Origin: a virus
Taxonomy: Duplodnaviria; Caudoviricetes
Virus record (IMG/VR): IMGVR_UViG_3300028591_000099
Span: 96,982 to 160,981 of that record
Direction: 5' to 3' (one strand)
Length of the DNA stretch: 64,000 nt
The position numbers and the translations under genes are program-made. The notes under the pieces are model-generated. The model was not told the DNA's origin. It did not search any database and worked only from the letters and a program-made list of their open reading frames with translations. Positions 3-49,576 of this stretch are shown piece after piece; within the stretch, counting starts at the first letter, position 1; the number at the start of each line of letters is the position of its first letter.

Positions 3-1454
3 AAGTATAATGGAACTACTTATACTCAATATTATCCAGTACTTGCGGCCGGGGGTAAAGAATGCCCTGTTGCCGATATGATGTTCTTGGATAAAGTCCA
101 AGTTACAGTTCGTCAAGTAGATGGAAAAACATTAGTGGACCACTATGGAATGCGACTAGTTCCAGACGCAAAATCTGCGGGGGACGACCAAGTATATATC
201 GGCGTAAGTGCTTTAAGAGTGCGTGCGAACGCAACTACTTCAGGTAGATTACATGGATATTGCCTTATGGGTGGTTATTACAACGTTCTTAAACGAATTG
301 AAAAAGCAGCGGCCGCAAATAAAGACTATGATTGATACCAAGTTGGCCCGTATCAATGGATTGCTGGAGTCGATGGTGTAGAATATAAAAAGGCCAGTGT
401 TGATAAACGCATTTTCAAAATTGAGAAAGATCCAGAATATGATTATCAATGGTCCTTAGATGGAAATCGCTACGGAGATAAATATGATGTTACCGTAATG
501 AGTGGTTTTGGAGATACTAAATTAATTGCTGATGGCTGAGAAGAGGTGTTAGCTGTTAATGGTTCATTATTCTACACCTATGACAATCAGCACTTTGCTC
601 TTGGGGTTGAAAAGAGTAGAGGTGTTGTTAACCAAGAGTTAGAAATGTCTTGTGTTACTGATAATAATGAAGTTATGGCTATTGGTATGACCTATGATGG
701 AAGATTAGAGTTCGCAAAAACTAAAGATATAGTTGCTAATATCAACAACTATTATGGTGCTGTTACTGGTGAATTTGGTATTATGAAAAATGGCGAAAAA
801 GCTGAATGAGGTAAAGAAGTATTTACAACTCAATATAATGATATTTCAGGAAGAACTATTATCGGTGAAGATAAAGAAGGAAATCCAATATCATTTAGTT
901 TAGCCGGAGTAACTGGTAGTACTGGATTAAGAGGTAAAGAATTATATGATTTATGTAAATCATTAGGTTTCTGGAATGCTATCTGCTTTGACGGTGGTGG
1001 TTCGGTATTCAGAAGAATAAATGGTGAAGTCGATATTTCAACTACTAGAAAAGTTAAAAATGCGGTTTTACTTTATAGAAGAAAGAAACAAGAAAAACCA
1101 GTTGAACCAGAGCCTGAACCAGAACCGGTTAATCCAACTCCAACAGAAGACTTAGAAAAATTAAAGGCTCAGATTGCAGAATTAGAAAGTAAAGTTAGCA
1201 ATTTAACAAGAAGTTTAAATGATGCTAACACTTTGCTAGAACAACGTAATAGTGAAATTGCGGTTAAAGAACAAGAACTTTCTAAAAAAGCAAAAGAAGC
1301 TGTAGAACTTGCTGAGGAATTAAGCAAGAGTGAAACAGAGTGCGGACAAGTAAAATCACAACTTAATCAAATGGAAGAACAATTATCCGTTGTAAAAAAT
1401 GATTTAACTACAGCCCAAACAAAAATCGCAAATGCTAAAGAAGCATTAAATTAA
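3..1454 (+). CDS. 5'-truncated cell-envelope hydrolase: SH3b-like region + phosphodiester glycosidase (NAGPA/DUF2233-like) domain + Pro/Glu linker + coiled coil; TGA=Trp
   Basis: ORF-track pieces 78-335, 546-809 and 1233-1454 share one frame and are separated only by TGA at 333, 537 and 807. Readthrough gives DYDWYQVGPYQWIAG, LAVNGS, GRTIIG and AICFDGGGS motifs. Confidence 0.8.
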
Positions 1455-1487
1455 TATAAGGGAGACTTCGGTCTCCCTATTTTTTAT
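1455..1487 (+). terminator. Rho-independent terminator
   Basis: AGGGAGAC-TTCG-GTCTCCCT hairpin followed by a T-run. Confidence 0.8.
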
Positions 1488-1498
1488 TATAAATAAAC

Positions 1499-1528
1499 TT
1501 GACACTAACAGAAATTTTGTGGTATAAT
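1499..1528 (+). promoter_or_regulatory. sigma-A/70-type promoter
   Basis: TTGACA-18 nt-TATAAT with extended -10 TG. Confidence 0.7.
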
Positions 1529-1648
1529 AATTATGTAAGTTAGGCCAAAATAAGATAATTTTGCCATAAGAAATTTTAAGAATATATGAGCGGGAATGGA
1601 ACCGCTTAGTAGGAAAAAGTTTACTTAAATGGAAGGAGAAAAAAGGAA

Positions 1649-2014
1649 ATGTATAACAGTTATGGAGCGTACCCAGCAAGTACGCCTTTTTACAATCCGC
1701 AATCATTTTTACAAAAACAAGAAGTTGTAAGAGTTAGCGGTCGAAATGGAGCAGAAGCATATCAAATGGCGCCAAATAGTAGTATACTACTTTTAGATGA
1801 AACTGCTCCAATAGTTTGGCTAAAAACAACGGACGGAGCGTCATATCCAACTATTACGGGATATGCTATCACCCCGGTCAAAACGCAAACCGCAATGGTG
1901 GAAGAGGACCACTATAAGGCATTAGAAGAAAGAATCGTAAAATTAGAGGAGGCTCTACATGACAAATCCAATGTTACAGATGCTAAGCCAACAATCAAGA
2001 CCATCAAACAATAA
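1649..2014 (+). CDS. Conserved hypothetical protein, gene 1 of a five-gene cassette
   Basis: RBS; VSGRNGAEAYQMAPNSSILLLDE motif recognised from Bacillota phage cassettes. Confidence 0.75.
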   Translation: MYNSYGAYPASTPFYNPQSFLQKQEVVRVSGRNGAEAYQMAPNSSILLLDETAPIVWLKTTDGASYPTITGYAITPVKTQTAMVEEDHYKALEERIVKLEEALHDKSNVTDAKPTIKTIKQ

Positions 2015-2258: not shown

Positions 2259-2921
2259 ATGGAAAATGGAAGTTTAAGTGCTAGTGATGTTGCTTTATTA
2301 AGTGATCGTGGCTATGGTTATGGTGATGGTATGTGAGGCGGCAATTCAATGATGTGGATTTTTGCTTTATTAATCTTAGCTGGCGGCGGTTTTGGTGGCT
2401 TTGGCGGAGGTTATGGTTACCATCCTCAGTATGCTACTCAAGATTTCGTACAGAATGGATTTAATTTCAATGATTTACAAGATCAGAACCGTGATATCTT
2501 AGGTGCTATCACTTCTGGAACAGCCCAGTCTGTAGCGGCTACTAATCAGTCATTCCACGATATTACAGCAACTTTATCTGATAAATATACTGAATTACAG
2601 AGAGATATTGCTGGTTTAGCAGTTGGTCAGGCTGGATTATTAGCTAAAGAAAATGAATGTTGCTGCTCTACTTTAAGAGCTATTGATGGCGTAAACTATA
2701 ATGCTGCTATGAATACAGCTGCTATCAATGCTAATACAACAGCACAAACTCAGAAAATTTTAGATGCTATTACTGGCAACAGAATGGCTGATATGCAGAA
2801 CCAAATTAACCAGTTGCAATTACAGCAAGCAGTTGCTGGTGTAGTTCGCTATCCAAGTGCAACTACATACACTTCTGGTTCTAATCCATTCTGCGGTTGC
2901 GGCTGCGGCGGTTCATTTTAA
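2259..2921 (+). CDS. Gly-rich N-terminal membrane / CCC-motif protein, cassette gene 3; TGA=Trp
   Basis: GGAGG RBS precedes ATG 2259. A TGA at 2334 (GDGM-W-GGNSMMWIF) joins it in frame to ORF 2349-2921. Confidence 0.8.
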
Positions 2922-3396: not shown

Positions 3397-3969
3397 ATGA
3401 CAGTTGAAGAGATTTATTCAAACCTAGCCGCACATATGATAAAAGGTCTTATGATACACGATCAAATGGTTGATTACTATTGCTTTTTGAACTTAAAAGG
3501 TTATGCGATGTGTCATAAGTATCACTATATTAGTGAAAATTGAGACTATATGAAATTAAAAAAGTATTATATTAAACATCATGGGAAATTAATTCCAGAA
3601 AAATCAATAGAAAATCCAAAAGTAATACCAAGTAATTGATATAGTCATATTAAGGCTGATGTAGATGTGTCTACTGTGCGGAATGGGGTAAAAACTGGTT
3701 TAGAAAAATGGGTAGCTTGAGAGACAGAAACTAAAGAGTTATATCAAAAAGCCTATAAAGATTTAATTGCTCTTGGCGCAGTCGCAGATGCTAATTTTAT
3801 ATGTTGCTTTATTGAAGGCGTTGACTGAGAATTAGTGCAAGCAGAGTCATTCCACTTAAAAAAGAAAATAGATGACTTTAGTATTAGTTCTATAACTGGC
3901 GACCAAGAATGAAAATATAAAAAATATTCTGAAAAAATAAGATCACTATTGGAATGTAGTGATGAGTAA
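3397..3969 (+). CDS. Helical, possibly ferritin-like protein (190 aa), cassette gene 5; TGA=Trp; missed by the ORF track
   Basis: ATG immediately after the previous TAA. Open to TAA 3967 apart from TGA at 3541, 3637, 3718, 3826 and 3910 (IPSNWY, KWVAWETETK). Confidence 0.85.
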
Positions 3970-3971
3970 AA

Positions 3972-4010
3972 ATAAGGGGGTTAGTTATAAAAATTAACCC
4001 CAATTTTTTT
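3972..4010 (+). terminator. Rho-independent terminator
   Basis: GGGGTTAGTT...AATTAACCCC hairpin plus T-run. Confidence 0.65.
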
Positions 4011-4012: not shown

Positions 4013-4042
4013 TTGACATTTCTAGAAAAAATATTGTATAAT
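4013..4042 (+). promoter_or_regulatory. sigma-A-type promoter of the ORF-Hsp20-tRNA(UCA) operon
   Basis: TTGACA (4013-4018), 18 nt spacer, TATAAT (4037-4042). Confidence 0.75.
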
Positions 4043-4255: not shown

Positions 4256-4630
4256 ATGTTATTTGATTATGATTCATTTTTTGATTGGGATAGACCAGCT
4301 TATAGTTTTAGTCGTTCAGTACACGACATGCATCCATATTCTATTAAAACTTTAGAAGATAGAGTTGTATTGGTTCATAACATTGTTGGTGTTAAAGAAG
4401 AAGATATCAAGGTTGATATTGAAAGAACAGAGGATGGAAGAGACCGACTTGTTATTGAGGGTGTAACTCATAATGATGTATTGAATTATGATTATAAAAT
4501 TAATTCAAAATTTTATATTAAAGCTGATATGTTTAAAGATGTAACCTATTATGTTAAGGATGGCTTACTTTATATTGAATTATTCAAAAAAGAACCAGAA
4601 GTTACCAAATTAACTGTCAGAAAAGCATAG
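4256..4630 (+). CDS. Hsp20/alpha-crystallin small heat-shock protein
   Basis: AGGAGG RBS; VGVKEEDIKVDI and VKDGLLYIEL alpha-crystallin motifs. Confidence 0.8.
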   Translation: MLFDYDSFFDWDRPAYSFSRSVHDMHPYSIKTLEDRVVLVHNIVGVKEEDIKVDIERTEDGRDRLVIEGVTHNDVLNYDYKINSKFYIKADMFKDVTYYVKDGLLYIELFKKEPEVTKLTVRKA

Positions 4631-4655: not shown

Positions 4656-4930
4656 AGGGGTGTCGGTTAATGGTAAGCTCGCGGACTTCAACCGCGTAAG
4701 CGTGCAATGGTGCCTTATTGTAGGGATATAATAAGTGGAGGCAATGATATCGGTGAAGACTAAACTGAAAAGCATGTTAATACCGAGGGAACGAAAGGCC
4801 CGTAGAGACTAGATAATTGCCCAGCTAGATCAGCTGAAGATATAGTCCAGACCACAAACAGTAATGGTAATGAAAATTATAGTGGCAAGCAAACCCGCCA
4901 ATCCCCGTTCGAATCGGGGCACCCCTGCCA
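4656..4930 (+). tRNA. tRNA-Trp with anticodon UCA (UGA-decoding), split by an intron; exons 4656-4688 and 4890-4930
   Basis: Acceptor stem AGGGGTG/CACCCCT, G73, encoded CCA, T-arm CCCCG-TTCGAAT-CGGGG. Spliced anticodon arm GCGGA-CTTCAAA-CCCGC. A1-U72 and G73 are bacterial Trp identity elements. Confidence 0.9.
4689..4889 (+). mobile_element. Group I self-splicing intron (201 nt, no ORF) between anticodon positions 34 and 35
   Basis: P3 GGCAAT/ATTGCC, P4 ATCGGTG/TACCGA, R element CGTAGAGACTA, S element AAGATATAGTCC (P7), GNRA-capped P2 and P9, terminal G 4889. Confidence 0.9.
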
Positions 4931-4970
4931 AGGAAGTAATCGGCGAATTAAGTCGAAAAATATATAAAAA

Positions 4971-5010
4971 AAAATAGGGAGAGTATAATTAAATACTCTC
5001 CCTATTTTTT
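4971..5010. terminator. Bidirectional terminator where the two transcription arms converge
   Basis: A-run, TAGGGAGAGTAT...ATACTCTCCCTA, T-run. Confidence 0.8.
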
Positions 5011-5598
5011 ATTTTCATGGTGTAAATCTTTCATATCTTCTGCAGAAACCAGAACTTCATCAAATGTGCGATCTACCTGATGTTGTTCATCTTCCTTGAC
5101 TATTGGTAATCTAATAGCTCTTTCATAATAAGAATCACCTTGAGCATTACCACCTAATTTATTATAGATATGATGTAAATCACTTAATGTATCGAATTGA
5201 TATTGAGTCATCCAACCTTGTGCGATATAGGCCTTACAAGCATTGATTAATTGAAATTTATAGAATTGAATATCTTGTTCTTTTAAAACTTTGAAATCTT
5301 CTTCAACAGCTTTTAAATCATCAACCGCTTCCCAATACATATCACGATAACGTTTAAACTCACTGCTAGTCTCATTCTTAAAATCATTAAAAGTTTTTTC
5401 AACACTATTTTTAAAGTCTTGGCACATTTCTCTAACAATAGATTCAACATGGTCGTGTAAGGCTTGTTGATCATACTTTTCAGCTTTACTCTCTTTTTCA
5501 TTATGCTGCTTAACAAGTGTATCTCAAATATATTTGACTAAAAAGCCTCCAAAAGCCACTAAAACGTAGCTTAAAATTGCATCTGCTGAAATATTCAT
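5002..5598 (-). CDS. Holin-like membrane protein (198 aa); TGA=Trp
   Basis: GAGGGGG RBS and ATG 5598; N-terminal hydrophobic helix AILSYVLVAFGGFLVKYI-W (TGA 5524); C-terminal YNKLGGN motif seen in lysis-cassette proteins. Confidence 0.65.
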
Positions 5599-5655: not shown

Positions 5656-6171
5656 TTACTCTGACCAATCAAAGCCTTCATTATTTATAACTGTGGTGCC
5701 TGCGGACGGCCGCATACATACGTGACTGCCAATACAGATAGCATCGCATTCATCTTGCGTTGCCTTTACTTGATACTGCTGGAGAACATATGCTTGTGCA
5801 TTACGTTTCTGATCTGGTCTTGTGCGACCTTTGATCTGTAATGTTGATTTTCAAGTAGAGGAAGGAACAACTATGACATTTTTATTTAACTCCACTGCAG
5901 TCTCAAGAACTACACCGAATACATTTGCTAATACTTTGAAGGTTTTCACATTATTTCCAACCGAGGACTGCAGTTGTATATCTTCAAAGGCAATTGTGTC
6001 TATATCTCACTCTTGGACTTTTTTGATTATAAAGTTGCGAATGGTGACTAAACGTTCACCAACCTCTTCTTGCTCGGTAGTAAGATGCCCTCAATCTTTA
6101 AGCTCGCCGTCAATAAAGATAGATCACCCGGATACACGACTCGCTTGATCCAGGGCTAAAAGTTTAGACAT
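5656..6171 (-). CDS. ruvC: RuvC-like Holliday junction resolvase (171 aa); TGA=Trp; missed by the ORF track
   Basis: LLALDQASRVSGW, IAFEDIQ, PSSTWK and DECDAICIG catalytic motifs; TGA at 6124, 6091, 6007 and 5851. Confidence 0.9.
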
Positions 6172-6173: not shown

Positions 6174-6719
6174 TTAATTAGAGGTTGAGCCAAAACCGCC
6201 TGTGCGGCTGCCGTTCGCATTGTCATCATCAACCAGACCATATGTCTTAATGATACCCTGGCCGATGACATCACCAGCTCTAAGAACAATATCAACCGGC
6301 GAGAAGTTGATAAACTGGAAGAAAATCTCACCTTCATTATCTGGATTATTATAATAATCGCTATCAATAATACCAATACCATTAGCAAGAATCATCCAGT
6401 AATTTAATGGAGTGGAACTGCGGACGGATAACTCAAGATACTTATCAGGATCAAGCTGGCACTTAACACCGGTCGGAACTAATGTCGGACGCAAACCAAG
6501 ATTCTTTGTTAAAGTTTTAAGATCTTTTAATCCATAAGGAATTTTATGAGCGAAATATCCATCAGCTTCATCCATAAGATTCCAAATAGATGGGACTACA
6601 GTATCTTTAGCCACTGCAAAGTCGTAGCCTGCTGAATTGGCGGTTGCCCGGACGGGTAAGCGGACAGCGCAGGCTTCTTGAGAACTCATATATTTACTAA
6701 CAATTTCAAACTTATTCAT
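6174..6719 (-). CDS. dut: dUTPase (trimeric)
   Basis: SAGYDF, RSS, GIIDSDYY and RTGGFGST motifs. Confidence 0.95.
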   Translation of the reverse strand: MNKFEIVSKYMSSQEACAVRLPVRATANSAGYDFAVAKDTVVPSIWNLMDEADGYFAHKIPYGLKDLKTLTKNLGLRPTLVPTGVKCQLDPDKYLELSVRSSTPLNYWMILANGIGIIDSDYYNNPDNEGEIFFQFINFSPVDIVLRAGDVIGQGIIKTYGLVDDDNANGSRTGGFGSTSN

Positions 6720-6729
6720 TATTTATCTC

Positions 6730-6981
6730 CTATAAATCATAATCTACTTCATAAACAGGTTTAATATGCTGAGAAGGTTCCTTTTCATCATTAAACTTTT
6801 TAACCAAGGTGACTTTATAATATTCATCAATAATTTCACCTTTAGCCTTACGAACCTTGTATTCAGAACTATATTTACCTAACTCAAACATAGAACTTGC
6901 TTTAGCTTCTTCAATTAACTTTTTAGCTTCTTCATCACTATCAACACGAAAAACTTCAGTTGTGCTTACTAAAAACTTCAT
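6730..6981 (-). CDS. Hypothetical protein
   Basis: ORF in tightly packed operon. Confidence 0.7.
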   Translation of the reverse strand: MKFLVSTTEVFRVDSDEEAKKLIEEAKASSMFELGKYSSEYKVRKAKGEIIDEYYKVTLVKKFNDEKEPSQHIKPVYEVDYDL

Positions 6982-7251
6982 TTAAATAGACTCTCTTTCT
7001 ATAACTGCAATATTTTTATTATATTTATCAACACCTTTAGTGTTAATTAATCGAGCTAACTGCTTAGTATAATATCTAGAACCGTATAAAATAACTTCAT
7101 TGGCATTATACTCATTGCAGGTAGCTGCGATTAGATTTGGCAATGATTCAACTGGCGCACGTCCAATTTCACGACTTGTGCCGTCATCATTGACTAAATA
7201 AACGCTCTGGTCATAATCAAATAGACCAAGTTTACATGTGACTACTGGCAT
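6982..7251 (-). CDS. Hypothetical protein
   Basis: ORF in operon; RBS. Confidence 0.7.
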   Translation of the reverse strand: MPVVTCKLGLFDYDQSVYLVNDDGTSREIGRAPVESLPNLIAATCNEYNANEVILYGSRYYTKQLARLINTKGVDKYNKNIAVIERESI

Positions 7252-7757
7252 TTTATTACCCCCTCATCATATTCAAAGAAATAGTATACATAAGAATTAT
7301 CTCCAATAGTGACCCAGCATTCTATAGCACCTTGGTCTGATAATTCAATACTTTTAATTTGGCCCAAGCTTTGAAGACATTCAATAACTTCATTCTCGAC
7401 TCTTGGAAGAATAGTAGGAACTTTTGCGGCATCTAATGGGATACTAACATCAAATAATGTATAATATTTACGCTCATTATTTAACAGCATATAATACTCA
7501 TGTTCTATTGGATTAACATAATCCTTGATGAGTTTAACTGCTTCATCAATTTGGTCTTGAGTATATTCTGGTGCCTTAGTCATAATGCCTTGATTTAACT
7601 CATATAGACTTACATCAAATGAAGTGCGGCCTTGGACCTCCCAGTTAGCACCATCCCATTTATATAAGGTATGAGTTTCTTCTACTAAAGCCAAATCTCC
7701 AACTTGATTGTTGGATTTTAATTTCATTAATATCTTGCTATTTGGTACTTTTATCAT
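7242..7757 (-). CDS. Hypothetical protein
   Basis: 171 aa ORF; GAGG RBS. Confidence 0.75.
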   Translation of the reverse strand: MIKVPNSKILMKLKSNNQVGDLALVEETHTLYKWDGANWEVQGRTSFDVSLYELNQGIMTKAPEYTQDQIDEAVKLIKDYVNPIEHEYYMLLNNERKYYTLFDVSIPLDAAKVPTILPRVENEVIECLQSLGQIKSIELSDQGAIECWVTIGDNSYVYYFFEYDEGVIKCQ

Positions 7758-7765
7758 ATTTACCT

Positions 7766-7990
7766 CTATTTATGTTTGCGATGTGCGTAGGCATTTTTTA
7801 AGGATAAAATACGCTTAACACGTTCATCGTATTCAGAAACCGGCATTTTAATATCAATATAAACCACACCATTATTATCTGGACTATATTCGATAACTGC
7901 GTTATCGACTGAGCCGGTCGGAAGATCTAATTCTTGCTCCACTACAAATGGGCGGAGAGGGTATATCCCATATTTATTTTCTCTATCCAT
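7766..7990 (-). CDS. Hypothetical protein
   Basis: ORF directly after a sigma-A promoter at about 7996-8025. Confidence 0.6.
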   Translation of the reverse strand: MDRENKYGIYPLRPFVVEQELDLPTGSVDNAVIEYSPDNNGVVYIDIKMPVSEYDERVKRILSLKNAYAHRKHK

Positions 7991-8032
7991 ATTATTATTA
8001 TAACATAAAAATAAAAAAAATGCAAGGAAAGA

Positions 8033-8179
8033 TTAAATCAATCCTTGCATTAAATTTAAGAACCAATAGAACATAACAATGAACCAATATCTAGCTAATT
8101 CATTATTATTATTTAATTCTTGTTTTACTCCTAAATATCCAGAGATAAGAACTAATAATGTTTTTATAAAATGTATCAT
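8033..8179 (-). CDS. Small membrane peptide (48 aa)
   Basis: ATG overlaps the nrdG stop; two hydrophobic stretches. Confidence 0.45.
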   Translation of the reverse strand: MIHFIKTLLVLISGYLGVKQELNNNNELARYWFIVMFYWFLNLMQGLI

Positions 8180-8667
8180 TAGAAGTCTACCCCCTTATAT
8201 CTAATTTGTTGATTGCGGCTGCCCCTTAGATGAAGCGAGACATCTCGCTGTTCCTCTAGGTAAGCCCCGTCTATTAATATATCAATGCACTCCAGCATCT
8301 GTTGTGCCTCTTTATCGATCGCCGCAACCATTTTTATTTGGTCTAAAGTGTATCCAGTCCAACAGAAGATCTTAATTGTTGGGAACTTATTTCTAACATG
8401 TCGTAATATATTGCAAGATAGTTTTCGATTATACCAAGCAAATGGCTCACCGCCAAGCAAACTGAAGTTTCTAAGCAAACCATTTGCGGTAATTGCTTTA
8501 TCAATGAGATCTAGATAGTTATCAGGAAGTAGTTCACCGCCTTCTGGATCCCAAGTTTGCGGGTTATGACAACCATGGCAGTGAAGTGGACAGCCCTGCA
8601 CCCAGAATGACGTGCATACACCTTCACCATCAACAAAGTCATCTTGAATTAAACCTGCATATTTCAT
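8179..8667 (-). CDS. nrdG: Anaerobic ribonucleotide reductase activating radical SAM enzyme
   Basis: GCPLHCHGCHN (CxxxCxxC), LGGEP and RGSRNQ motifs. Confidence 0.95.
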   Translation of the reverse strand: MKYAGLIQDDFVDGEGVCTSFWVQGCPLHCHGCHNPQTWDPEGGELLPDNYLDLIDKAITANGLLRNFSLLGGEPFAWYNRKLSCNILRHVRNKFPTIKIFCWTGYTLDQIKMVAAIDKEAQQMLECIDILIDGAYLEEQRDVSLHLRGSRNQQIRYKGVDF

Positions 8668-8668
8668 A

Positions 8669-10882
8669 TTACTTTCTCCAATTTGTTAGACTGTTAGAAT
8701 GCTTATATCTCATTTCAACTTCTTGCTGTTTACCTTTATTAAATGCTGTTGTGTAATTACCTGTTAAATAGCCAGTAACTCTACGCAGTCTTTGGATATT
8801 ATGGCTGCCACAAACTGGGCAAGTGTCATTCATCTCATCTGTGTAACCGCAATCAAGGCACGTATCATTTGGAACATTGATTGCGAAATATGGAATGTCT
8901 TTATCCATAGCGTAATTTACAATCTGCTCCAATGCATCAAGATTGTTTTTAGCACCAGAATCTAATTCAACATAAGTAATACAACCAGCATTACTGTATC
9001 CCGTTAATTGACTTTCAATATCAATTTTTTCGAATGGTGACATATGCTTCCAAACAGGAACATGAATACTGTTTGTAAAATACTCATTTTCAGAAACATT
9101 TGGAATAACACCATATTGTTCTTTGAACTTCTTCATAGCAGTATAACATAAGTTTTCTGCAGGAGTATAATATACTCCAAAGTTTAAATGATATTTCTTC
9201 TTAAATTCTGCACAACGCTTTTGGAATAATTCTTCAATTTCTTTAGCCATCATCATACCTTCATTATCGGTTTGATCGACACCCATTAAAATCTGTAAAG
9301 TCTCTGCCATACCAAGCTGGCCAATAACTAGAGTGCCATGTTTCATTGCAGAACGGATACCCTCTTCAGGTTTATACCCTAGCATTGTGCCATTTTCATA
9401 CATGAATTTTGCAGAATCTGGAGACTGGCTGCAAATCCATTCATAACGTTCGATTAACATATCTTTAGCTTCAGAAATCTTTTTATCCAAAAGATTCATA
9501 AAATTATCGCATAAATCACCAGATAACTCTTTAGCTTTCATAGCAAGAAATGGAAGTAAGATAGTTACTGGAGCAATATTGCCACGACCATCTTTGGTTT
9601 GCGGATTTGTGCCTGGTTCAGCATTGATATCGCTACCATTATACGTTCTGCACCCCATTGTTGAAACATAGGTTCTAGGATCATTACGATCATATCCGGC
9701 ATTCGTAGACCAATCAACATTAACATAGTTTGGATATAATCTCTGTGCGGTAGATTTTAATGCTAATCTAAATAAATCATAGTTTGGATCACCAGGTGCA
9801 CGGTTAACGCCTTTCATGCACTGGAAGATACCGCATGGGAAGATAGATGTTTTATGTAATTTACCTAAGCCTTCAATAGAAACGTTAAGAATTTCTTCAG
9901 TAACCATTCTACCTTCTGGAAGTGTGCATGTTCCATAGTTGATAGATGTAAATGGTAGCTGATTACCAGAACGTGATTGAAGTGTATTTAGATTATGATA
10001 CATACCTTCAACAGCCTGATGCACCTCACGTTTAGTCATATTCAAAGCATAATCATAAGCAACACAACGCGGATAATCTTCAATTGACATATCAGAATTA
10101 GCTTCAAATCCCATAAAGGAATCATCAACATAATCAATAGCATCTTTCCAATGTTTATAGAAAGATTTTCTGACATATGGGACCATAGTCCAATCTAAAT
10201 GGCTCGCACTGACGCCACCAAATTGCTGTAAAGACTGCAACTGGAAAATAACTGCTACGAGCTGGAATGCTGTGTTAACAGAATTAGCTGGTCTAACATC
10301 AGTTTGACGAGTATTGAAACCTTTAGCTAAAATATCATCAAATGGGATAGTTAAACAGTTATGCATACCAACAGCATAAGAATCTAAATCATGAATATAA
10401 ATATAATTATTTAAATGATTATTACGGGACATCTCTGACATACAATAGTCAAGGGCAAATTTTTTAGTTAAAGCACGATTGGCTTCACCCATGCGGCCGC
10501 CGAATGAATGCTCATCAACATTTGCATTTTGATTCTGAACATCACTGGCATCTAACTTACGAGCCACCTCTTGCATAAATTGTGTGTTGTGCTCACGAAC
10601 TCTATTACGTTCATAACGATACTGAATATAAGCACGAGCTACATCCTTACGCTTGCAGGACATCAGACCATTTTCAACAAGATCCTGGATCTCTTCAACA
10701 TTTAATTCGTGGTCAGAAGCTTCTGCTTGTTCTTCAACATATTCAGCGATATTTGCGGCTTTCGTCTCAGCATACTGTGAGATCTGGCCATCAACATCTT
10801 CAAAAGCGGCTAAAACCGCACGCTCAATTTTGCTCTTATCAAATTCTACGACAGAGCCATCTCTTTTAATAATTAATAACAT
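8669..10882 (-). CDS. nrdD: Anaerobic (class III) ribonucleoside-triphosphate reductase
   Basis: N-terminal ATP cone, MGCRT, C-terminal CxxC...CxxC and RVTGYL glycyl-radical motif. Confidence 0.97.
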   Translation of the reverse strand: MLLIIKRDGSVVEFDKSKIERAVLAAFEDVDGQISQYAETKAANIAEYVEEQAEASDHELNVEEIQDLVENGLMSCKRKDVARAYIQYRYERNRVREHNTQFMQEVARKLDASDVQNQNANVDEHSFGGRMGEANRALTKKFALDYCMSEMSRNNHLNNYIYIHDLDSYAVGMHNCLTIPFDDILAKGFNTRQTDVRPANSVNTAFQLVAVIFQLQSLQQFGGVSASHLDWTMVPYVRKSFYKHWKDAIDYVDDSFMGFEANSDMSIEDYPRCVAYDYALNMTKREVHQAVEGMYHNLNTLQSRSGNQLPFTSINYGTCTLPEGRMVTEEILNVSIEGLGKLHKTSIFPCGIFQCMKGVNRAPGDPNYDLFRLALKSTAQRLYPNYVNVDWSTNAGYDRNDPRTYVSTMGCRTYNGSDINAEPGTNPQTKDGRGNIAPVTILLPFLAMKAKELSGDLCDNFMNLLDKKISEAKDMLIERYEWICSQSPDSAKFMYENGTMLGYKPEEGIRSAMKHGTLVIGQLGMAETLQILMGVDQTDNEGMMMAKEIEELFQKRCAEFKKKYHLNFGVYYTPAENLCYTAMKKFKEQYGVIPNVSENEYFTNSIHVPVWKHMSPFEKIDIESQLTGYSNAGCITYVELDSGAKNNLDALEQIVNYAMDKDIPYFAINVPNDTCLDCGYTDEMNDTCPVCGSHNIQRLRRVTGYLTGNYTTAFNKGKQQEVEMRYKHSNSLTNWRK

Positions 10883-10986
10883 ATCGTTTCCTCCTAAGTA
10901 TTTAATATATGTTAAGGATTTTTCGATCCGTAAATTATATAACTTTTATCTTAAATATTTTATCCAAATCAGACCAAAGGAGGACA

Positions 10987-13900
10987 TTAGTCCTCCTCAT
11001 CAATTTCACCTTGTGCTCGATTTGATGTTAATAACACATCTCGACCATCATTATACAATGATTCGATCTTATACAACTGATGACCTTGACTATTACTATA
11101 TTTTTTCGGAGTAAAATTATCGCCCTGTCTAATACCCTGAACAACAATCATACTACCTCTATTGAACCAGCTACCTTCAATTTTATGCTTAACACCATCG
11201 GCACCTCTCGCAGATATTGTCTTATCAAATAATGCGAAATATTCTTTCGCAAATTTAACATCAACAACTCCAGTAGTTGTTAATAATGTTACTGTTGAAC
11301 GAACCTTATCTTTAGCAATACAAGTTCCGCAAATCTTATGTAATTTAAACTTCCTAATTTCATGACCGTTACGAGTCTTCCAAGATTCTAACACTATTGG
11401 AGTTTCTGGTAAACTGAAAAAATCTTCATAACCATATTTTTTATTATCCAATTTTGCCAACTCATGTTCATGATAATAGAAACATAATACTTCCATCTCC
11501 CATGCGGATAAAGACCCGGACGCATATTTAACCCAATCTTCTTTAAATATACTATCATTTAAATTTCTCAAAATTTCATCTTTATTTTCAGAAATCCACT
11601 GTCTAAATACATCCATCCATCCTTGATATACTTTGTCCCAATCTTTAACTGTCACCGTTGCATTACTTTGAATCAAATTATCATAACCAACTTCTGTTAA
11701 GAAATTAAATGCTCTTGTATCCAAATTATATAAAGTTTTTGAACTATTAATACAAACCTTTTTTAAATATCTATTAAACTCAAAAATACGACGAGCCATT
11801 ACCTGTTTATCATTATGTTCTGGCAATAAACCATGGGCAATTAACCCACTCATATTTTGTAAAGTTATACGTTTCTTTTTATCACAAGTTTCCCAAATAT
11901 ACCAAGCCATCACAAACTTGCGGTCTTCCATATTATCGAAAGCTCCGCCTTTAATCAAACTAATCATCGCTTGTTTATTCGGATGAACTTTTTCTATATA
12001 ATCTTTTGGAGAACTATATGGTCTATACTTAATCGTATTTTCAATAACCTCATCTCCAACATTCAACATACTCTTTAATCCAAAAAGTATCTGATTATTT
12101 TCAATATCTGGTTCAAAACCATAACCAGATTTATTAATATCAACTAAACTTACTTTAATACCAGCCGCACGGGTATCACCTAATGCTTTCGCCATCTTAC
12201 CATAAGCTGTTGAACCCCCACCAATTGATCCACTATTAACCGCTAAACATGCTGTATTCCAATAGATTGGATTAAAATGAGTCCCAATATATGCAGTCTG
12301 GAAACCAATAAATGAATATGCCAACGCATGAATAATACTAAATGAATAACCCATCTGCGGACCGACGCCATATTGCCATACATATCGGCCCAAATTTTCA
12401 GAACTTGCTTGTTTATAAATCTTTTCACGAAGTTCTGGAATCTTATTCATCTGTTTTTTACCAACTATTTTACGAGCCGCATTTGCTTCTCCTAGAGTAA
12501 AATGACAAATCTTATCATCCATCAACATTCTCATTAACTGTTCTTGGCTTGGCGGTACTCCATAAGATGATAAGAAATATGGCTCTAACGTTTTTTGCTC
12601 TTCAACTGTTAAACCAGCCTTCCGCATCTCCTCATACCACAATGAAATGTTATTTTTATATCTAACATATTTATCCATCGGAGTTTCTGCACCCCGTTCC
12701 GCAGTCATAAGTCTCATTAAACCATTTGTATCGGCTAATTCCAAAATATTTTTTGGTTTAATCTTCTTTGCGGCTTGTGCTCCAACCATTGAATCGAACT
12801 GGAAAATATTTAATACAGACCCTTCTTCGATGGCTTTCCACACCTTTTGGTCATCTAATGGTAACACTTCTGGATGAAAATACTTATCATATACTTCTTT
12901 TAAACTTAAATCAGGTTCAATTTCATTATTCTTTTGTAACAAATGAATTGCTTCAACTAATTTATCTTGAACATCTGTTACTAAGAAGTCAAACTTCGTC
13001 ATTCCCAATGATTCACACATATGAAGATCAAACTGTGTAATAATTTCACCATTCGGTGTCTTCATAAATGCTCCATACTCATATGGATCTTCATCGAAGA
13101 AAATTACACCTGATGCATGAGAACCACGCTGTTTAATTAACCCTTGAATACCAAACATAATCTCTAATAATCCAGGATAATTATTTACTTCCATGACAAA
13201 CTGCTGAACCGGATTACGATCTTTATCTGGATTCCCATACACAGTATCTTCTAATGTCCATAAGAAACCACGTTCAGATGGAATTAATGATGACATATAC
13301 TGTGCTTCATCAACGTCAATGCCATCTGGGAACTCATCACTTCGATAACCTCTACATGCTGTTAAAATCGCACTTTTTGTCGATTCAGTTCCAAAAGTCG
13401 CAATTAATGTGCAACCTAAATTCTCTCTTGCTAATTCTGATACACTTTTATCAAAATTTTTACCACGTTCTTCTTTAATCTTTTCAATAATAATCGGACG
13501 TTTTGATGGACATAAATCCAAATCAATATCACCTAATTCAATACGTTCTTTATTCAAATATCTAAAGAATGGCAAATTCCACTTAATCGGGTCAAGCTGC
13601 GTTACACCTAATAAATAATGATTTAATCCAGAACATGATGAACCACGTCCTGCACCAACCATACTTCCACATTCCCAGAACATATTAATATAATGCTGTA
13701 AAGTTACTGGATAACAAAACATATTTGTCTCAAGTTTTTCACCAATAACTCTTTTAATATCAGCTTCTTCCTCTAATCGAGAAAGATATGTATCATTATC
13801 TTTATCTAATTCTTTTAACTTCTTTAAACACTCATTAACCCAATATCTCTCATAAACATCATTTGACATTCTCATACTTTTGAGAATTGGGAATTTATTT

Positions 13901-14859: not shown

Positions 14860-14883
14860 ATCATCCCCCTATCTATATATTTA

Positions 14884-14911
14884 TTATAACATATTTAATT
14901 TTGAAAGTCAA
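14884..14911 (-). promoter_or_regulatory. sigma-A promoter for dnaE; representative of more than 25 similar minus-strand promoters
   Basis: TTGACT-17 nt-TATAAT with extended -10 TG. The same pattern recurs at about 21415, 35975, 39320, 42040, 45985, 46695, 50650, 51715, 60135, 62870 and 63895. Confidence 0.75.
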
Positions 14912-14943
14912 AGGCGCGTGCGGCCCCCGATTAAACCGATCGG

Positions 14944-16155
14944 TTAAGGCTGGCGGCGCACAATAACTAATTTTTGACGAGCTCTTGTTACTGCCGTATA
15001 TAACCAACGTTTGTGGTCTTCACCCCAAGGAAAATCCTCTTCAAAGACTAGGACTTTATCCCATTCAGAACCCTGACTCTTATGTGCTGTAATCGCATAT
15101 CCATAGTCGAACTGATGCGGCTGCAGCACTTGCGGGATACGTCTAAAATTCTCTTTAGTTACTGTTGGTTCATGCGTTGTAAATAATTTATAATCTAAAT
15201 TTAAATCAGTAAATACTCCATCACCATATATAATAGCATCAGATTCTGGTGCATAGTGATCTGGCAAGAAGTCTGCTGACATAAAAGTTTTTATGTACTT
15301 TTTAGGCACAACATTTATCCTATTATTATCTGTATATACAATATTCTCTAAATAGCCAGTAAGGCCATTTACTAATACATCTCCAAGAGGGGTAATAGTA
15401 TCCCAGTCATTACGCAAACAAATAACTTTATCACCCTCCATAGGTTCATCACTATGGTCACCAAATATATAAGTTCTCATTAAGTCATTATAGAAATGTC
15501 TTGTAGAGTTTTTTGCAACAATAATTTGGTCTGCCCATTGTAACATACCACTAGTAACTTCATATGGGTCAATGATTTGAACTTCAGATCCTTTAAACTT
15601 ATGTAATGACTTACCCTCACGAATATCCATAGATATTCTAATAATCTCTGACTCTTGGGCTTGACGCATAATTTCATCTAGGAATACGTGCGGATGGTCG
15701 AGCACACCATTCGGTTCATTCAGAGGTGGTAGCTGCCCAGGGTCACCGAGTGCAATTACATGGATGTGATGGCTTAACAACAAGTCCCACATATCTTTTG
15801 GAAGCATTGAAACTTCATCAACTACAATTAATTTATATGGATATTCTAATGGACGTCGAGGCATATGGAAAAATGTCCCATCCCTACGAGGATAAGATTG
15901 ATATAATAACCGATGTGCCGTCATAGAATTTAAATTGCCCTTCTCTTGAAGAACTAAAGCTGCTTTGCCAGTATAAGAGATAAAACAAACATCATAAGGA
16001 GGAAGATTTAAAGCTTGTATAATAAAACTAACTAGCGTAGATTTACCAGAACCCGCATAACCACTAATACAAGTATATGGTTTATGCTGATTGTATCTCT
16101 GAACCGCTAGTTCAAGAGCTTCTTGTTGTTTCTCTGTTAAAATAATATCTTCCAT
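14944..16155 (-). CDS. RecD-like/Dda SF1B helicase
   Basis: GYAGSGKS, DEVSM, GDPGQL, TAHKSQGSE and YTAVTRA motifs. Confidence 0.92.
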   Translation of the reverse strand: MEDIILTEKQQEALELAVQRYNQHKPYTCISGYAGSGKSTLVSFIIQALNLPPYDVCFISYTGKAALVLQEKGNLNSMTAHRLLYQSYPRRDGTFFHMPRRPLEYPYKLIVVDEVSMLPKDMWDLLLSHHIHVIALGDPGQLPPLNEPNGVLDHPHVFLDEIMRQAQESEIIRISMDIREGKSLHKFKGSEVQIIDPYEVTSGMLQWADQIIVAKNSTRHFYNDLMRTYIFGDHSDEPMEGDKVICLRNDWDTITPLGDVLVNGLTGYLENIVYTDNNRINVVPKKYIKTFMSADFLPDHYAPESDAIIYGDGVFTDLNLDYKLFTTHEPTVTKENFRRIPQVLQPHQFDYGYAITAHKSQGSEWDKVLVFEEDFPWGEDHKRWLYTAVTRARQKLVIVRRQP

Positions 16156-16212
16156 AGTTCACCTCTTATATATATTATAACATATTTTATCAAAAAGAAC
16201 AAAAAAAGGAGA

Positions 16213-31699: not shown

Positions 31700-31702
31700 A
31701 TA

Positions 31703-36648: not shown

Positions 36649-37203
36649 TTAGCGGTCGCCGCATAAAGTTTTTATATCTCTAATGTTATATCCATATTGA
36701 CTAAGCCAGCAAGAAGCATCAGGTCTAAAAGGGTAATATTCAGAACAATCTATTATATGTGACGAATCTCAATTATATTCATTACATATATCCTTACAAA
36801 ATAATTGTAATTTTAACAATACCTCAGCCGCATAAGCTGGATCATCATCCTTTTCACAAATACAGAGATGAATATAGTTATCATTTCAAACTTGCATATC
36901 TGCTGGATGTGTCTCTACAGTAGCGATATCATTGTTATTTAAAAGACCAATAAAGTAATGATAATTATAACTACGATGGATATGATTTCAATCATTGTTA
37001 TTAAAATTATATCCAATAAGCGACATTAAAATATCATATTTTGAATCACTTTTGGAGGGTTGCACGTAAGTCTTTAAGTATGGTGTTTTAACCCCAGAAG
37101 AGTGAATCATAATACCAACTGGATTAATATGTTTATTAATAGCATATTGAGTGCTATTTGTCGCTAAGCATTTGATTGGTTCTTGATTTTCTCATTTTTG
37201 CAT
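36649..37203 (-). CDS. N-acetylmuramoyl-L-alanine amidase (Amidase_2)-like protein, 184 aa, possibly degenerate; TGA=Trp; missed by the ORF track
   Basis: CLATNS, GIMIHSSG, YVQP, NDWNHI, HYFIG and ICE motifs; TGA at 37192, 36988, 36886 and 36769. Confidence 0.8.
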
Positions 37204-37585
37204 GAAATTCGTCCTTATCTCTAATATATTCATATAAATTTAGTTTAAGAACTGCTAATTGATGCTTAGCAATTTCTAAATCATTATTTAATAAACTTAT
37301 TTGGCGATAAAGCATTTTTGCTTCATATGATTTTGGATTAAAATGTTTGCTGTTTTTAATAGAATAATAGTATTGCTTTAACGCTTGTAATTTAATTTTT
37401 AAGTCATCTCTATATGTTTTAGCCGCTTGAATTTGTGCCCGCATTTCTGCGATAGTGCCCCCAATTAACGCACTTTCAAAATCCCGATCTTCGTCAGCAC
37501 AGCGTGCTTCGCCTTTGAAAACTCGGCCTAGACTATCAGTGACAGAACAAGTGGCATATCCATTTTCATAAGTAAAAATAGGCAT
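37154..37585 (-). CDS. Hypothetical protein
   Basis: GAGGAGG RBS before MPIFTY. Confidence 0.7.
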   Translation of the reverse strand: MPIFTYENGYATCSVTDSLGRVFKGEARCADEDRDFESALIGGTIAEMRAQIQAAKTYRDDLKIKLQALKQYYYSIKNSKHFNPKSYEAKMLYRQISLLNNDLEIAKHQLAVLKLNLYEYIRDKDEFHAKMRKSRTNQMLSDK

Positions 37586-41773: not shown

Positions 41774-42034
41774 TTATCAAAAGTTAGAAAAATCTAATAA
41801 ATCTGAATCTTCATCTCCAGTCCAAATTTTTTCAACTTTTGCTTGCCATCCAATTTCAGGATAAAAATCAGAAAATACATAATTATACAGTATATCTCCA
41901 ACCTCATTCCAACTTTCTGGGTTATCAGTTAAATTATGCACATCTAACCAAACCTCTAAGGCTTGCCGCAAATCTATTTCATCTATTGGAATTACTGCCA
42001 ATAGTTCTAAAATAACACTATTTAAATCTCTCAT
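41774..42034 (-). CDS. Hypothetical acidic protein ending TGA-TAA
   Basis: ORF after a promoter; tandem stop codons. Confidence 0.65.
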
Positions 42035-42593: not shown

Positions 42594-42667
42594 TGGCACC
42601 CGGACTAGGACTCGAACCCAGATCAAGGAGGTTGGAGCTCCCTATGCTGCCATTACACCATCCGGAT
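42594..42667 (-). tRNA. tRNA-Trp (CCA)
   Basis: Cloverleaf; loop CTCCAAC; A1-U72, G73, CCA end. Confidence 0.9.
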
Positions 42668-46581: not shown

Positions 46582-47176
46582 ATAGAATGGAAAAGACCGT
46601 TTTGAGGAGCATCGCTCCCTTGGATTTACCCTTTGCGGAACGGTCTAGAACCAATGTAAGTTAAAGTGTAAGAGAGGATTTCTTTTCCTTACATTATTAT
46701 TATATCAAATTTTTTTAATATAATCAATTAATATTTCAATAACTTCGGTGTGCAGTTTCAATCACACGCATCTACTGTGGGTTGCATAGACTTTATTAAT
46801 TTATCACTGGCGTGACCTGCCTCGGTGTCAATTCACCTATATATATCGCAATTTGCAACATCTAACTTATTGCGGCAGGAGTGATACCAGCGCTGTGTTC
46901 ACCCCACAGATGTCCCACGTACGTAGCCTCTATTGTCTTATTGGCTTTTAATGCTTGCCTACGAAGCTATCATTCTTTCGCAAGTTCGCGGTTACTCATC
47001 GTAATCGCCTCGCTTTATTCTTCTTCTAAAATCTTTTCTAGTTTTCTTCTTCCAATAACGCCATGCTTTTGGATTGTTCTTAACCCAACATGCATAGTTT
47101 CGATCAAATTTATCTTCAAAAGTTGCTTTTTTGTGAATATTACTTTTATGGGACATATTATATCCCTCCCTTCTTA

Positions 47177-47929
47177 TTAGAAGGTAATCACCTCACAATT
47201 CACCTTATGGCTATATACGGTACAAGCATCCATAGCAACAATGCCATCATCTTTAAATGGGGAGAAATGGGCTTTATCGCCTTTCTTTTTAGGAAATTCA
47301 ACTCCATAATGATGAAGATTCGCGTGTCCCCAAGAGGTATGCCAATGGCCGCACCAAATAGTTTTACCAGGCTCTTTAATACCATTAGCCCAAGCTGCCA
47401 TACCGTTAATCCAGGTTGCGTCTTTCCACTCACGAATAGAAGCATTACGCCAATTTAAATCATATGCGATTGGGGAAACATTATATTCCCCGACCGCATA
47501 ACACGGAATCCAACCATGCACGAAGATATTGTCGCCAACTTCGGCATAAAATTGACAATTATATAGATATTCTTTCCAAGGGTCGAAATGTTTCATGACA
47601 AATATTGCCTCATCAGTATCATCGATTTCGGTTAGATCTCTTGCGGTTCTTATCGTACCATTATTAATATCGTATGTGTGTCCGAAACCACGCTCAATCA
47701 TATCCTGCATAAGCAACTCATGATTACCAAGGATTAAAATCTTATTATCATTAGGCAAAGAGTTAACAAATTCAAGGCACTGTTTTGCGGCTGGGCCTCT
47801 GTCGAACAGATCACCCAGAGATACAAATACATGATCTGGATTTGTCTTGTCATAACCCGCATCCGCAAGTGCTTTACACATTTCATCATAAAATCCGTGA
47901 ACATCGGCTACTACGAAATATTTCTTCAT
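47177..47929 (-). CDS. Calcineurin-like metallophosphoesterase
   Basis: DVHG, GDLFDRG, GNHE and GHWH motifs. Confidence 0.9.
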   Translation of the reverse strand: MKKYFVVADVHGFYDEMCKALADAGYDKTNPDHVFVSLGDLFDRGPAAKQCLEFVNSLPNDNKILILGNHELLMQDMIERGFGHTYDINNGTIRTARDLTEIDDTDEAIFVMKHFDPWKEYLYNCQFYAEVGDNIFVHGWIPCYAVGEYNVSPIAYDLNWRNASIREWKDATWINGMAAWANGIKEPGKTIWCGHWHTSWGHANLHHYGVEFPKKKGDKAHFSPFKDDGIVAMDACTVYSHKVNCEVITF

Positions 47930-48034
47930 ATTTGTTCTCTCCTTTCCTATTACATAATAATTATATCATAATTTTTATAAAAAGTAAAAAAAACTCCTCA
48001 CCGCTAAAAGGTGAGGAGTTTAAAACTATTTTTA

Positions 48035-49312
48035 TTATTCAGAAAGACCATTATCCCAATTTAATGGTAATACAATGTTTTCATCTTCTAAATCAGCCGG
48101 AATTAAAACTAAGTTGCCGATAGATGCATCTTCTTTTTCAAATACCATATTTTCAGAAACTTCTAATGCCATTGTATCTGCTTTTGGATAATTAGCTGCT
48201 TTATCATAAACAATTGGAGCACAAGGAACTACAACTCTAGAGTCACCAGCCTTACCCGTTACTGTTCCAGAAGTAATAATTTTACCACCATTTAAAGTAG
48301 CCTTACCAGCACGGATAACAATACCAGCACCACCAATTGCTTTAATAGTACCACCATTCATTGTAAAGTTACATCCACCTGGCATATAAACACCATTTGC
48401 TACCCAACCAGCAGATTGAATTGTGCTTACTAATTCACCATCATTCATAACGATTTCAATTGGTAATTGTTCACGAACGCCTTCAGATTCTTTTGTAGTT
48501 AAATTACCATTAGCATCAACTCATCTAGAGCCATTGCCACCAATAGCACAATTGTCTATACCTTTAATAGTGCCGCCATTGATTTCTAAAGAAGCACCAT
48601 CTGTAATATTAACACCATATTCTTGAGCTGTTACTGCACCACCATTAACGACAACAGCAGAACCTTCTCCAGTAGCACCAAGACCATTTAAACCAGTGCT
48701 AATAACTGAGCCACTTTCTAATACAACCTTACCACCATGTCTTGCGACAATAGAACGACCAGTAGTTCTTAATTCACCGCCATTGCCTTGAATTGTTAAA
48801 GAACCACCATCAACAACAATAGCAGATTCTTGACCAGATAATGAATGATCAGCTAAATCTAATACTACATCTGCGCCGGCAGGTATGACGACCGGTTCAG
48901 CACCAAGCGCAAGATCAGCACCTAATTTTACAACACCAGTTTCAACTAATGCTGCTTTTAATGAACTTTCATCAGAAACTCCCTTACTTGCATCAGCAAT
49001 AGCTTGTGCAATAAGAGCTTTGATTTCTGATTGACCCATAGGGATAATTTCATCTTTCCAAGAAAGACCTTCTTCACCTTTAACTGCGATTTGTCCAATT
49101 CTTGCTTCTTCTAAGCCTGGTAATTCATATGCTTCAGTTTCCGCAAAATATGGGAGATCAAGCCACGCAGTTTCACCATCACCAATTTTCATTTTATTAG
49201 TGTCTGTTTCAACTCCTGGCTCAGCCAATAATAATACCGGATTTGCTTCGGCCCACTCTGCTGCAGTGCCTCTGCGTAGACGAATACGTGTTTTTAATGT
49301 AATTTCTGCCAT
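48035..49312 (-). CDS. Tail-fibre/adhesin-like protein (Mtd_N-like N-terminus + beta-helix repeats), 425 aa; TGA=Trp
   Basis: RRGTAAEWAEANPVL...ETDTNKMKIGDG; ORFs 48521-49312 and 48035-48448 are in frame and joined through TGA 48521. Confidence 0.75.
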
Positions 49313-49324
49313 AATATCTCCTTC

Positions 49325-49576
49325 CTATTGAACATCTCCGCCGTCTCAAATGTAAGATTGTTCCTCACTCGGTTCTGAAGAAGAAGAAGAGCCTGATGAT
49401 TTTTTAATCTCTTTTCATTCTCCATCACCATTTAGAATATATTCTTTACTATTTTCAATGATAAAACATTTACTACCCATTCTTGTAGCACGGAGGTCCA
49501 CTTTTTCGAGTTCTTCTGCTTTATCGCAAACAAATTTTTTGACACCTAAACTACTGCCTTGAATTATAGATATCAT
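49325..49576 (-). CDS. Small virion-associated-like protein (83 aa); TGA=Trp; missed by the ORF track
   Basis: AGGAGG RBS; MGSKCFII...YILNGDGEWKE; TGA at 49415 and 49346. Confidence 0.75.

Follow-up and report, generated by a model that had tools for sequence, protein, structure and literature searches.

The DNA examined here is a stretch of 64,000 nucleotides (hereafter, the window) from a tailed phage of the class Caudoviricetes, comprising bases 96,982-160,981, i.e., the last 64 kb or right-hand 40%, of the 160,981-bp IMG/VR record IMGVR_UViG_3300028591_000099. It contains two sets of genes that differ in their treatment of the TGA codon: one in which TGA occurs in frame, most readily understood as a codon for tryptophan (Trp), and one that is intact under code 11, the usual code of bacteria. 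It also contains a small putative transcription unit for the candidate decoder of UGA, a tRNA(UCA) whose anticodon loop is predicted to be split by a group I intron. The terminal 100 nt of the record match its initial 100 nt with a single difference (99/100), which makes it probable that the assembly is closed, and the 161-kb genome (about 35% G+C) is probably complete. Genes were called across the whole genome with only TAA and TAG as stops, using a codon-usage score, and positions below are those of the window unless given as genome coordinates.

Within the window, 26 in-frame TGA codons fall in nine genes, and our list of open reading frames (ORFs) under code 4, in which TGA encodes Trp, reproduces exactly the counts given in an earlier note made from the sequence alone (3, 1, 5, 1, 4, 5, 4, 1, and 2). 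The first of the nine (3..1454, + strand) encodes a NAGPA phosphodiester-glycosidase domain with a weak match to an endolysin PHROG; its three TGA codons were counted correctly, but the window holds only the 3' part of this late gene, which in full encodes 635 aa (genome 96528-98435) and has five. It is followed by a late-strand gene matching phrog_16490 (2259..2921, + strand; 1 TGA, 1 TGG) and by the last gene of the + strand late module (3397..3969, + strand; 5 TGA, 1 TGG). On the - strand lie genes for a 198-aa protein (5002..5598; 1 TGA, at W25) and for a RuvC-type Holliday-junction resolvase (5656..6171; PF02075, phrog_827; 4 TGA, 1 TGG), and further along the same strand a GIY-YIG homing endonuclease (27595..28566; PF01541 and homing-endonuclease phrogs; 5 TGA, 2 TGG), an Amidase_2 protein (N-acetylmuramoyl-L-alanine amidase; 36649..37233; PF01510; 4 TGA, 1 TGG), a tail-fibre-like protein with an Mtd_N domain and a beta-helix (48035..49312; tail-fibre phrogs; 1 TGA, 5 TGG), and, upstream of the fibre gene, an 83-aa ORF for which no family was found (49325..49576; 2 TGA, 0 TGG). 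Pfam and PHROGs matches bear out the identities first proposed for RuvC, the GIY-YIG protein, the amidase, and the fibre, whereas the supposed holin (the 198-aa protein) has no named family and carries only a single, N-terminal hydrophobic segment.

A TGA-free block of replication and nucleotide-metabolism genes (6174..35948, - strand) encodes an NrdG-like protein, NrdD, DnaE, a helicase, a DHH/RecJ-like protein, DnaB, a permease, LigA, GyrA, and GyrB, and its sole interruption is the GIY-YIG gene. The genes for DnaE, NrdD, GyrA, GyrB, LigA, and DnaB are whole under code 11, as had been read from the sequence, as are those for the helicase and the DHH/RecJ-like protein; all 19 Trp codons of DnaE are TGG (0 TGA). 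No intron RNA was detected around the GIY-YIG gene, which is consequently treated as free-standing, unlike the intron-borne endonuclease in the description of the Agate phages considered below. As an auxiliary gene in a phage, the permease gene (23893-25248, - strand; xanthine/uracil permease family, PF00860, E 2e-42) is unusual.

The confinement of TGA to nine genes holds within the window, but not beyond it: genome-wide, at least 41 genes carry in-frame TGA, with a total of about 180 such codons. Their distribution over gene classes is far from even. The + strand late module (genome 22.9-101.6 kb) comprises 53 genes, 35 of them with at least one TGA (161 TGA, 138 TGG), while 60 genes of the - strand have none (0 TGA, 196 TGG; Fisher p 1.5e-46 for the comparison of these two sets). 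The TGA-bearing genes of the - strand are six (RuvC, amidase, fibre, homing endonuclease, the transmembrane protein, and one small ORF), with 17 TGA and 11 TGG, and these also differ from the other 60 (Fisher p 1.6e-18). The comparison of coding density that had been suggested as a check gives the same picture, in that ORFs of at least 150 aa cover 0.54 of the late module under code 11, 0.92 under code 4, and 0.56 under code 15 as a control, as against 0.66, 0.72, and 0.70, respectively, for the - strand module. We regard the late bias of TGA recoding as solid.

The genes of the late module differ among themselves in their use of TGA (chi-square p 4e-4). The mean TGA share is 54%, and although the 4-5:1 excess of TGA over TGG remarked on for RuvC, the amidase, and the gene at 3397 is correct as a count, it does not differ from this mean (binomial p 0.23-0.46). 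The portal and neighboring head genes (genome 27428-33222 and 36537-37819) have 0 TGA and 24 TGG (P 9e-9 under uniform usage), and two tail genes (genome 83059-86682 and 88310-89560) have 16 TGA and 0 TGG. The first gene of the module (genome 22922-23992; L002:3922-4992, + strand) matches phrog_5767, annotated as "sigma factor" (E 7.5e-47), a label without Pfam support, and carries 4 TGA and 1 TGG; late transcription may thus itself depend on the suppressor. A k-mer search upstream of the + strand late genes gave nothing convincing as a shared late-promoter motif.

The meaning of TGA was addressed by comparison with homologues. An exhaustive HMMER search with RuvC yielded 132 homologues of at least 140 aa, against a Trp background of 2%. 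The TGA at residue 107 (PSSTWK) stands opposite Trp in 131 of 131 homologues; at residue 16 (SGW) the counterparts are Trp (57), Tyr (56), and Phe (13); at the third site they are Tyr (35), Trp (34), and Phe (12), and at the fourth mostly Tyr or Phe. In the amidase, W116 is Trp in all ten homologues and the Trp of NDWNHI (W82) in nine of the ten. The motif positions that had been singled out by eye are accordingly Trp or aromatic positions, and the tally shows no pattern of glycine (Gly), cysteine (Cys), or selenocysteine (Sec); Gly is not one of the residues common at the RuvC sites (four) or the amidase sites, contrary to the expectation under code 25. For neither RuvC nor the amidase did a sequence search of the PDB return a homologue that could be used. 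The codons of relatives agree with this assignment. With the RuvC protein as query, 23 related IMG/VR loci were collected, and in eight representative relatives of the TGA type, TGA codons of this phage stand opposite TGA 39 times and TGG 10 times, while its TGG codons stand opposite TGA 18 times, TGA being their commonest replacement (28 TGA/TGG swaps in all). In relatives that recode TAG, the same TGA codons face TAT in 15 and TGG in 8 of 26 cases. The reading of TGA as Trp is thus well supported by the alignments.

The earlier note had pointed to the rest of the genome for genes of release factor 1 (RF1) or tryptophanyl-tRNA synthetase (TrpRS). No release factor or TrpRS gene was found in the phage genome, and the candidate decoder is a tRNA(UCA) that lies within the very span covered by that note, where it was overlooked. 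ARAGORN, run with its intron option, predicts at 4656-4930 a tRNA whose anticodon is tca, with an intron of 201 nt following position 34. The 5' exon (4656..4688, + strand) runs from A1 to U34, the intron (4689..4889, + strand) occupies the anticodon loop, and the 3' exon (4890..4930, + strand) runs from C35 to an encoded CCA and supplies U72 and G73. The predicted spliced RNA, called tRNA(tca), is 74 nt long and has an A1-U72 pair and G73, both of them features of bacterial tRNA-Trp, together with the anticodon loop CUUCAAA, the encoded CCA, and an ordinary 7/5 cloverleaf. At the splice junctions (U4688/C4689 and G4889/C4890) the last nucleotide of the exon is U and that of the intron is G; among the junctions that would give the same product, only U4688/C4890 leaves an intron-terminal G. 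The same arrangement at the same site recurs in 15 related loci, all 16 sequences are called tRNA(tca) when spliced in silico, and the acceptor, T, and anticodon stems covary across the 16 spliced tRNAs, the anticodon stem being built from both exons. Because the intron splits the anticodon, the decoder is invisible to ARAGORN without the intron option and to the Rfam tRNA model.

Neither ARAGORN nor Rfam found another tRNA(UCA) in the genome. ARAGORN predicts 22 tRNA genes and Rfam one more, giving 23 in addition to a transfer-messenger RNA (tmRNA), all of them inside the window. The last member of this tRNA array, an ordinary tRNA-Trp(CCA) (42594..42667, - strand; 61% identity to the spliced tRNA(UCA)), had been considered as a Hirsh-type UGA reader on account of a U11-A24 pair, and was dropped once the tRNA(UCA) was confirmed. 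The tRNA gene added by Rfam (46026-46096, - strand; 47 bits), with an atypical T loop and missed by ARAGORN, is a tRNA-Gly(GCC) and not a suppressor. Code-4 extensions of the ORFs at 42070-42681 and 44477-45079 are spurious, as they overlap tRNA genes. One relative (L015; IMGVR_UViG_3300021387_000299, 178 kb) has in the syntenic place an intron-less, 95-nt tRNA(UCA) (L015:11620-11714, - strand) with a long variable arm, G1-C72, and G73, and its RuvC retains TGA at the same Trp positions.

Small group I introns are known from the anticodon loops of bacterial tRNAs, among them cyanobacterial tRNA-Leu(UAA) and Azoarcus tRNA-Ile. The intron predicted here is about 200 nt long and is inserted after U34, like that of tRNA-Leu(UAA); further shared features are an exon that ends in U, an intron that ends in G, a P3-P9 core, a GUAGAGACUAGA-type stretch at J8/7-P7, and an anticodon stem formed from two exons. 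It differs from them in that the host RNA would be a phage opal suppressor and that self-splicing is predicted from sequence. The group I assignment rests on one sub-threshold match to the Rfam Intron_gpI model together with covariation. Eight distinct introns fit the group I order P3-P4-P5-P6-P7-P3'-P8-P7'-P9 with a P3/P7 pseudoknot; the common structure has 61 pairs, with 98% of cells paired as compared with 31-41% when the partners are slid, and 23 pairs have changed on both sides, including pairs in P3, P7, P8, and P9, which none of 500 shuffles matched. Exact matches to the intron core occur in 13 IMG/VR contigs, nearly all of this clade. Rfam searches of three loci from TAG-type or distant relatives found nothing, and neither did a search of the rest of the genome at the gathering score.

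The tRNA is the last element of a compact unit, in the order terminator, consensus promoter, TGA-free ORF, pre-tRNA, and terminator. A terminator-like hairpin (3977..4001, + strand) closes the late module and is followed by a perfect sigma-70/SigA-type promoter, TTGACA-18 nt-TATAAT (4013..4042, + strand), which stands 643 nt upstream of the tRNA(UCA); of 15 related loci, 10 have such a promoter at roughly this distance, with no more than one mismatch. Between promoter and tRNA lies a TGA-free, 124-aa ORF (4256..4630, + strand) with a weak match to an Hsp20 PHROG (E 1.7e-4) and no Pfam match. Downstream, a two-way terminator hairpin of 18 pairs (4969..5010) separates the unit from the converging - strand genes. 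Given the consensus promoter, the decoder is probably transcribed by the unmodified host polymerase. A promoter of the host type suits a code switch, although by itself it would impose no delay, and the tRNA may be made early.

The host likely reads TGA as a stop (code 11), as several features of the phage and its relatives suggest. Early cassettes in the left arm of the genome, outside the window, hold code-11 ORFs that end in TGA, and two early paralogues (L001, genome 6699-7049 and 10431-10790, both - strand) end in ...AWFTKI-TGA and ...AWFTKI-TAA, respectively; since the C-terminus is shared, TGA is a stop there. Within the window, a single candidate TGA stop was seen, in a small early-strand gene (41777..42034, - strand) that ends in TGA directly followed by TAA. 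In five related contigs (L026-L030; e.g., L027:10001-10495), RuvC has in-frame TAG at glutamine (Gln) positions (LLALD-q and FEDI-q-LQ), and these loci gain ORF coverage under code 15 and none under code 4; in these contigs, the sequence within 10 kb of RuvC yielded no suppressor tRNA. That sister lineages recode different stops is expected if the standard code is that of their hosts. Bacterial proteins homologous to the phage amidase come from metagenome-assembled genomes of goat and roe-deer gut Clostridia, and a peptidoglycan amidase argues against a wall-less, code-4 host. The earlier proposal of a code-11 host is thereby supported indirectly, through the TGA/TAA stops of the paralogues, the phage's own tRNA(UCA), the TAG-recoded sisters, the amidase homologues, and the known hosts of the nearest named phages (Enterococcus, Bacillus, and Staphylococcus).

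Other features of the window lie among the - strand genes. The tmRNA (41416-41770, - strand; Rfam 101 bits) has a predicted 25-residue tag that ends at TAG and lacks the usual ALAA-type end; speculatively, it might relieve ribosome stalling that results from read-through of host TGA stops. A GOLLD-like large RNA (49703-50135, - strand; 79.5 bits, gathering score 150) is located between the fibre gene pair and a tRNA-Pro/Glu/Met group. Two small, Cys-rich paralogues (62309-62569 and 62542-62862, both - strand) include one with a TGA five codons before its TAA, which may be either a stop or a Trp codon.

The nearest named phages are all distant; besides Phass-1, taken up below, they are of the Enterococcus VRE9/EF1/H1 type and SPbeta-like (about 40% identity in DnaE, 37-38% in RuvC), with Enterococcus, Bacillus, and Staphylococcus as hosts, and the Enterococcus and Bacillus relatives differ from this phage in using the standard code. 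Stop-codon recoding enriched in late genes is, as the earlier note had stated, established in gut phages: TGA- and TAG-recoded phages with recoding concentrated in structural and lysis genes were described by Borges et al. (bioRxiv 10.1101/2021.08.26.457843; Nat Microbiol 2022), who predicted standard-code Firmicutes and Bacteroidetes as hosts (Firmicutes for the TGA type) and proposed that recoding prevents premature late expression. Mgcod likewise deals with block-wise dual coding. The dual-code pattern reported here is a further example of this published late recoding and is not new in kind. Among the published groups, the Agate phages are similar in genome size (154 +/- 27 kb) and in their origin from cattle or other gut sources; they likewise have standard-code replication genes with recoded structural and lysis modules scattered over the genome, a homing endonuclease with a TGA bias that lies inside the early region, a transmembrane protein of the lysis region that is recoded, a small number of TGA stops, and sister genomes in code 15 or code 11. 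The likeness here is one of architecture, and that survey describes no suppressor split by an intron. In the late genes scanned, neither Pfam nor PHROGs matches pointed to a terminase.

Two Jade phages carry a code-change operon of TrpRS, RF1, and tRNA-Sup(UCA) (Borges et al. Fig. S6, 10.1101/2021.08.26.457843). As in the unit described here, that operon is standard-coded, adjoins lysis genes, and supplies a UGA decoder; unlike it, the present unit is without TrpRS and RF1 and has only the small TGA-free ORF and the intron-bearing tRNA. Phass-1, a human gut phage of the proposed Phassvirus, has stop-codon recoded late genes and predicted Clostridia hosts (PMC10607447), and shares 35% (portal) and 33% (RuvC) identity with the phage of the window; it differs in that TAG is recoded to Gln and in having three intact tRNA-Sup(CUA) genes. 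Theta ribozymes, which resemble that of hepatitis delta virus (HDV), adjoin the tRNA-Sup(CUA) of code-15 gut phages, none having been found with code 4, and a role in the code switch has been proposed (PMC10879173). In the present case, too, the maturation of a phage suppressor tRNA would be tied physically to a predicted catalytic RNA; here that RNA would be a group I intron situated in the UGA decoder's anticodon loop, unlike a Theta ribozyme. A limited literature search turned up no account of a suppressor tRNA split by an intron in any recoded phage, and the feature that appears new relative to the published cases is the putative group I intron in an opal-decoding tRNA.

Taken together, we consider it likely that this is an Agate-like phage of ruminant-gut Firmicutes, one of the alternatively coded gut phages already known as a class from publications, in which TGA in late genes is translated as Trp by means of an intron-split decoder in a standard-code host. 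Under this explanation, the host would read TGA as a stop, its RNA polymerase would transcribe the pre-tRNA, the intron would remove itself, and host TrpRS would charge the spliced tRNA. Once enough tRNA had accumulated, UGA would be read as Trp, and only then would full-length protein be made from the TGA-bearing genes, including the sigma-like first late gene; early genes that end in TGA would from then on be read through. A role of UGA as a timing lock, as the earlier note had envisaged, is plausible, and the distribution of TGA would fit an evolved lock and a by-product of translation timing equally. A more specific proposal, which we put forward tentatively and consider doubtful in all its parts jointly, is that the code switch is gated by RNA catalysis, in that the sole UGA decoder would form only after self-removal of the group I intron from the anticodon loop. 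The rate of splicing or the supply of guanosine would then set the translatability of the sigma-like, resolvase, lysis, and tail genes; the same event would extend early proteins ending in TGA, making a two-way switch, and damage from read-through would be buffered by the phage tmRNA and by the Hsp20-like ORF transcribed along with the tRNA.

The pattern could also have arisen with no lock at all. After acquisition of a suppressor, G-to-A drift would turn TGG into TGA in genes that are translated after the tRNA is made, with purifying selection keeping TGA out of genes translated earlier, such that TGA passively records the timing of expression and is no regulatory device; such a route to recoding was proposed by Borges et al. 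(10.1101/2021.08.26.457843). The free interchange of TGA and TGG among relatives (28 swaps), the TGA share of the nine genes (no different from the late-module mean), the 35% G+C of the genome, and the strong host-type promoter of the tRNA all accord with drift. Less easily accommodated are the heterogeneity of TGA use in the late module (0 of 24 in head genes as compared with 16 of 16 in two tail genes; chi-square p 4e-4), the independent recoding of the same RuvC gene by TAG in a sister lineage, and the recoding of the same gene classes (lysis, tail, and homing endonuclease) in Agate phages, and on balance we rate this account as possible but rather unlikely. A host that itself uses code 4, being Mollicutes-like, with the phage following its code and the TGA-free early genes being a recently acquired module, would explain how 15-16 TGA per ORF could be read efficiently without an anti-RF2 factor, as well as the lack of release factor and TrpRS genes in the phage. 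Such a host would lead one to expect TGA in all gene classes and never as a stop, whereas 60 genes have 196 TGG and 0 TGA, and one of the early paralogue pair stops at TGA; the tRNA(UCA) carried by the phage and kept in its relatives, the TAG-recoded sisters, the peptidoglycan amidase with homologues in walled Clostridia, and the standard-code Firmicutes hosts predicted by Borges et al. (10.1101/2021.08.26.457843) speak against it as well, making it very improbable.

Hardly credible, finally, is that TGA stands for a residue other than Trp (Sec, Cys, or, as in code 25, Gly), or that the interrupted ORFs are pseudogenes or sites of programmed readthrough. ARAGORN does label every tca anticodon "SeC", and the UCA tRNA of the relative L015 has a long variable arm; in homologues, by contrast, the residues opposite TGA are Trp, Tyr, or Phe and not Gly or Cys, and the tRNA of this phage has A1-U72, G73, and an ordinary 7/5 cloverleaf. 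Decay is excluded by the conservation of about 180 sites across relatives.

Several observations nonetheless weigh against the explanation that we prefer, i.e., late TGA-to-Trp recoding by an intron-split decoder in a standard-code host. The TGA-free block of head genes means that the "late" and "TGA-bearing" sets are not identical, and the early-type promoter of the tRNA weakens a simple scheme of late unlocking. Some ORFs carry 15-16 TGA and would require near-complete suppression, while no factor that would remove competition from release factor 2 (RF2) was found in the phage. In the tRNA itself, the anticodon stem of this phage is mismatched at A31-C39, a position that is U-A in most relatives. 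The match to the group I intron model RF00028 (4694-4871) scores 34.9 bits (E 6.5e-7 in a 1.2-kb search) and does not reach the gathering score of 50; in the loci of six TGA-type relatives, there was no match to this model at E 0.01 in a 65-kb search, in which stricter filters for long input apply; and a conserved P1 helix or guide sequence was not definable by hand on the intron alignment. The IMG/VR entry, for its part, gives the record as linear and 93% complete.

Relatives that recode the same RuvC gene by reading TAG as Gln make this group a good natural comparison for asking whether the recoding of particular genes is selected, and the promoter, ORF, and pre-tRNA together form a small construct that is testable in a laboratory Firmicute. 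The predicted decoder is conserved across a clade of rumen phages, in a host-promoter unit beside the lysis genes. For recoded phages more widely, a suppressor tRNA was detected in only 35% of code-4 genomes, and non-canonical tRNAs were suspected (Borges et al., 10.1101/2021.08.26.457843); an intron-split decoder would offer a concrete explanation for some of these "missing" suppressor tRNAs. If the code switch is gated by RNA catalysis, intron-split suppressors would also account for some of the code-4 phages, 65% in all, for which surveys detected no suppressor tRNA.

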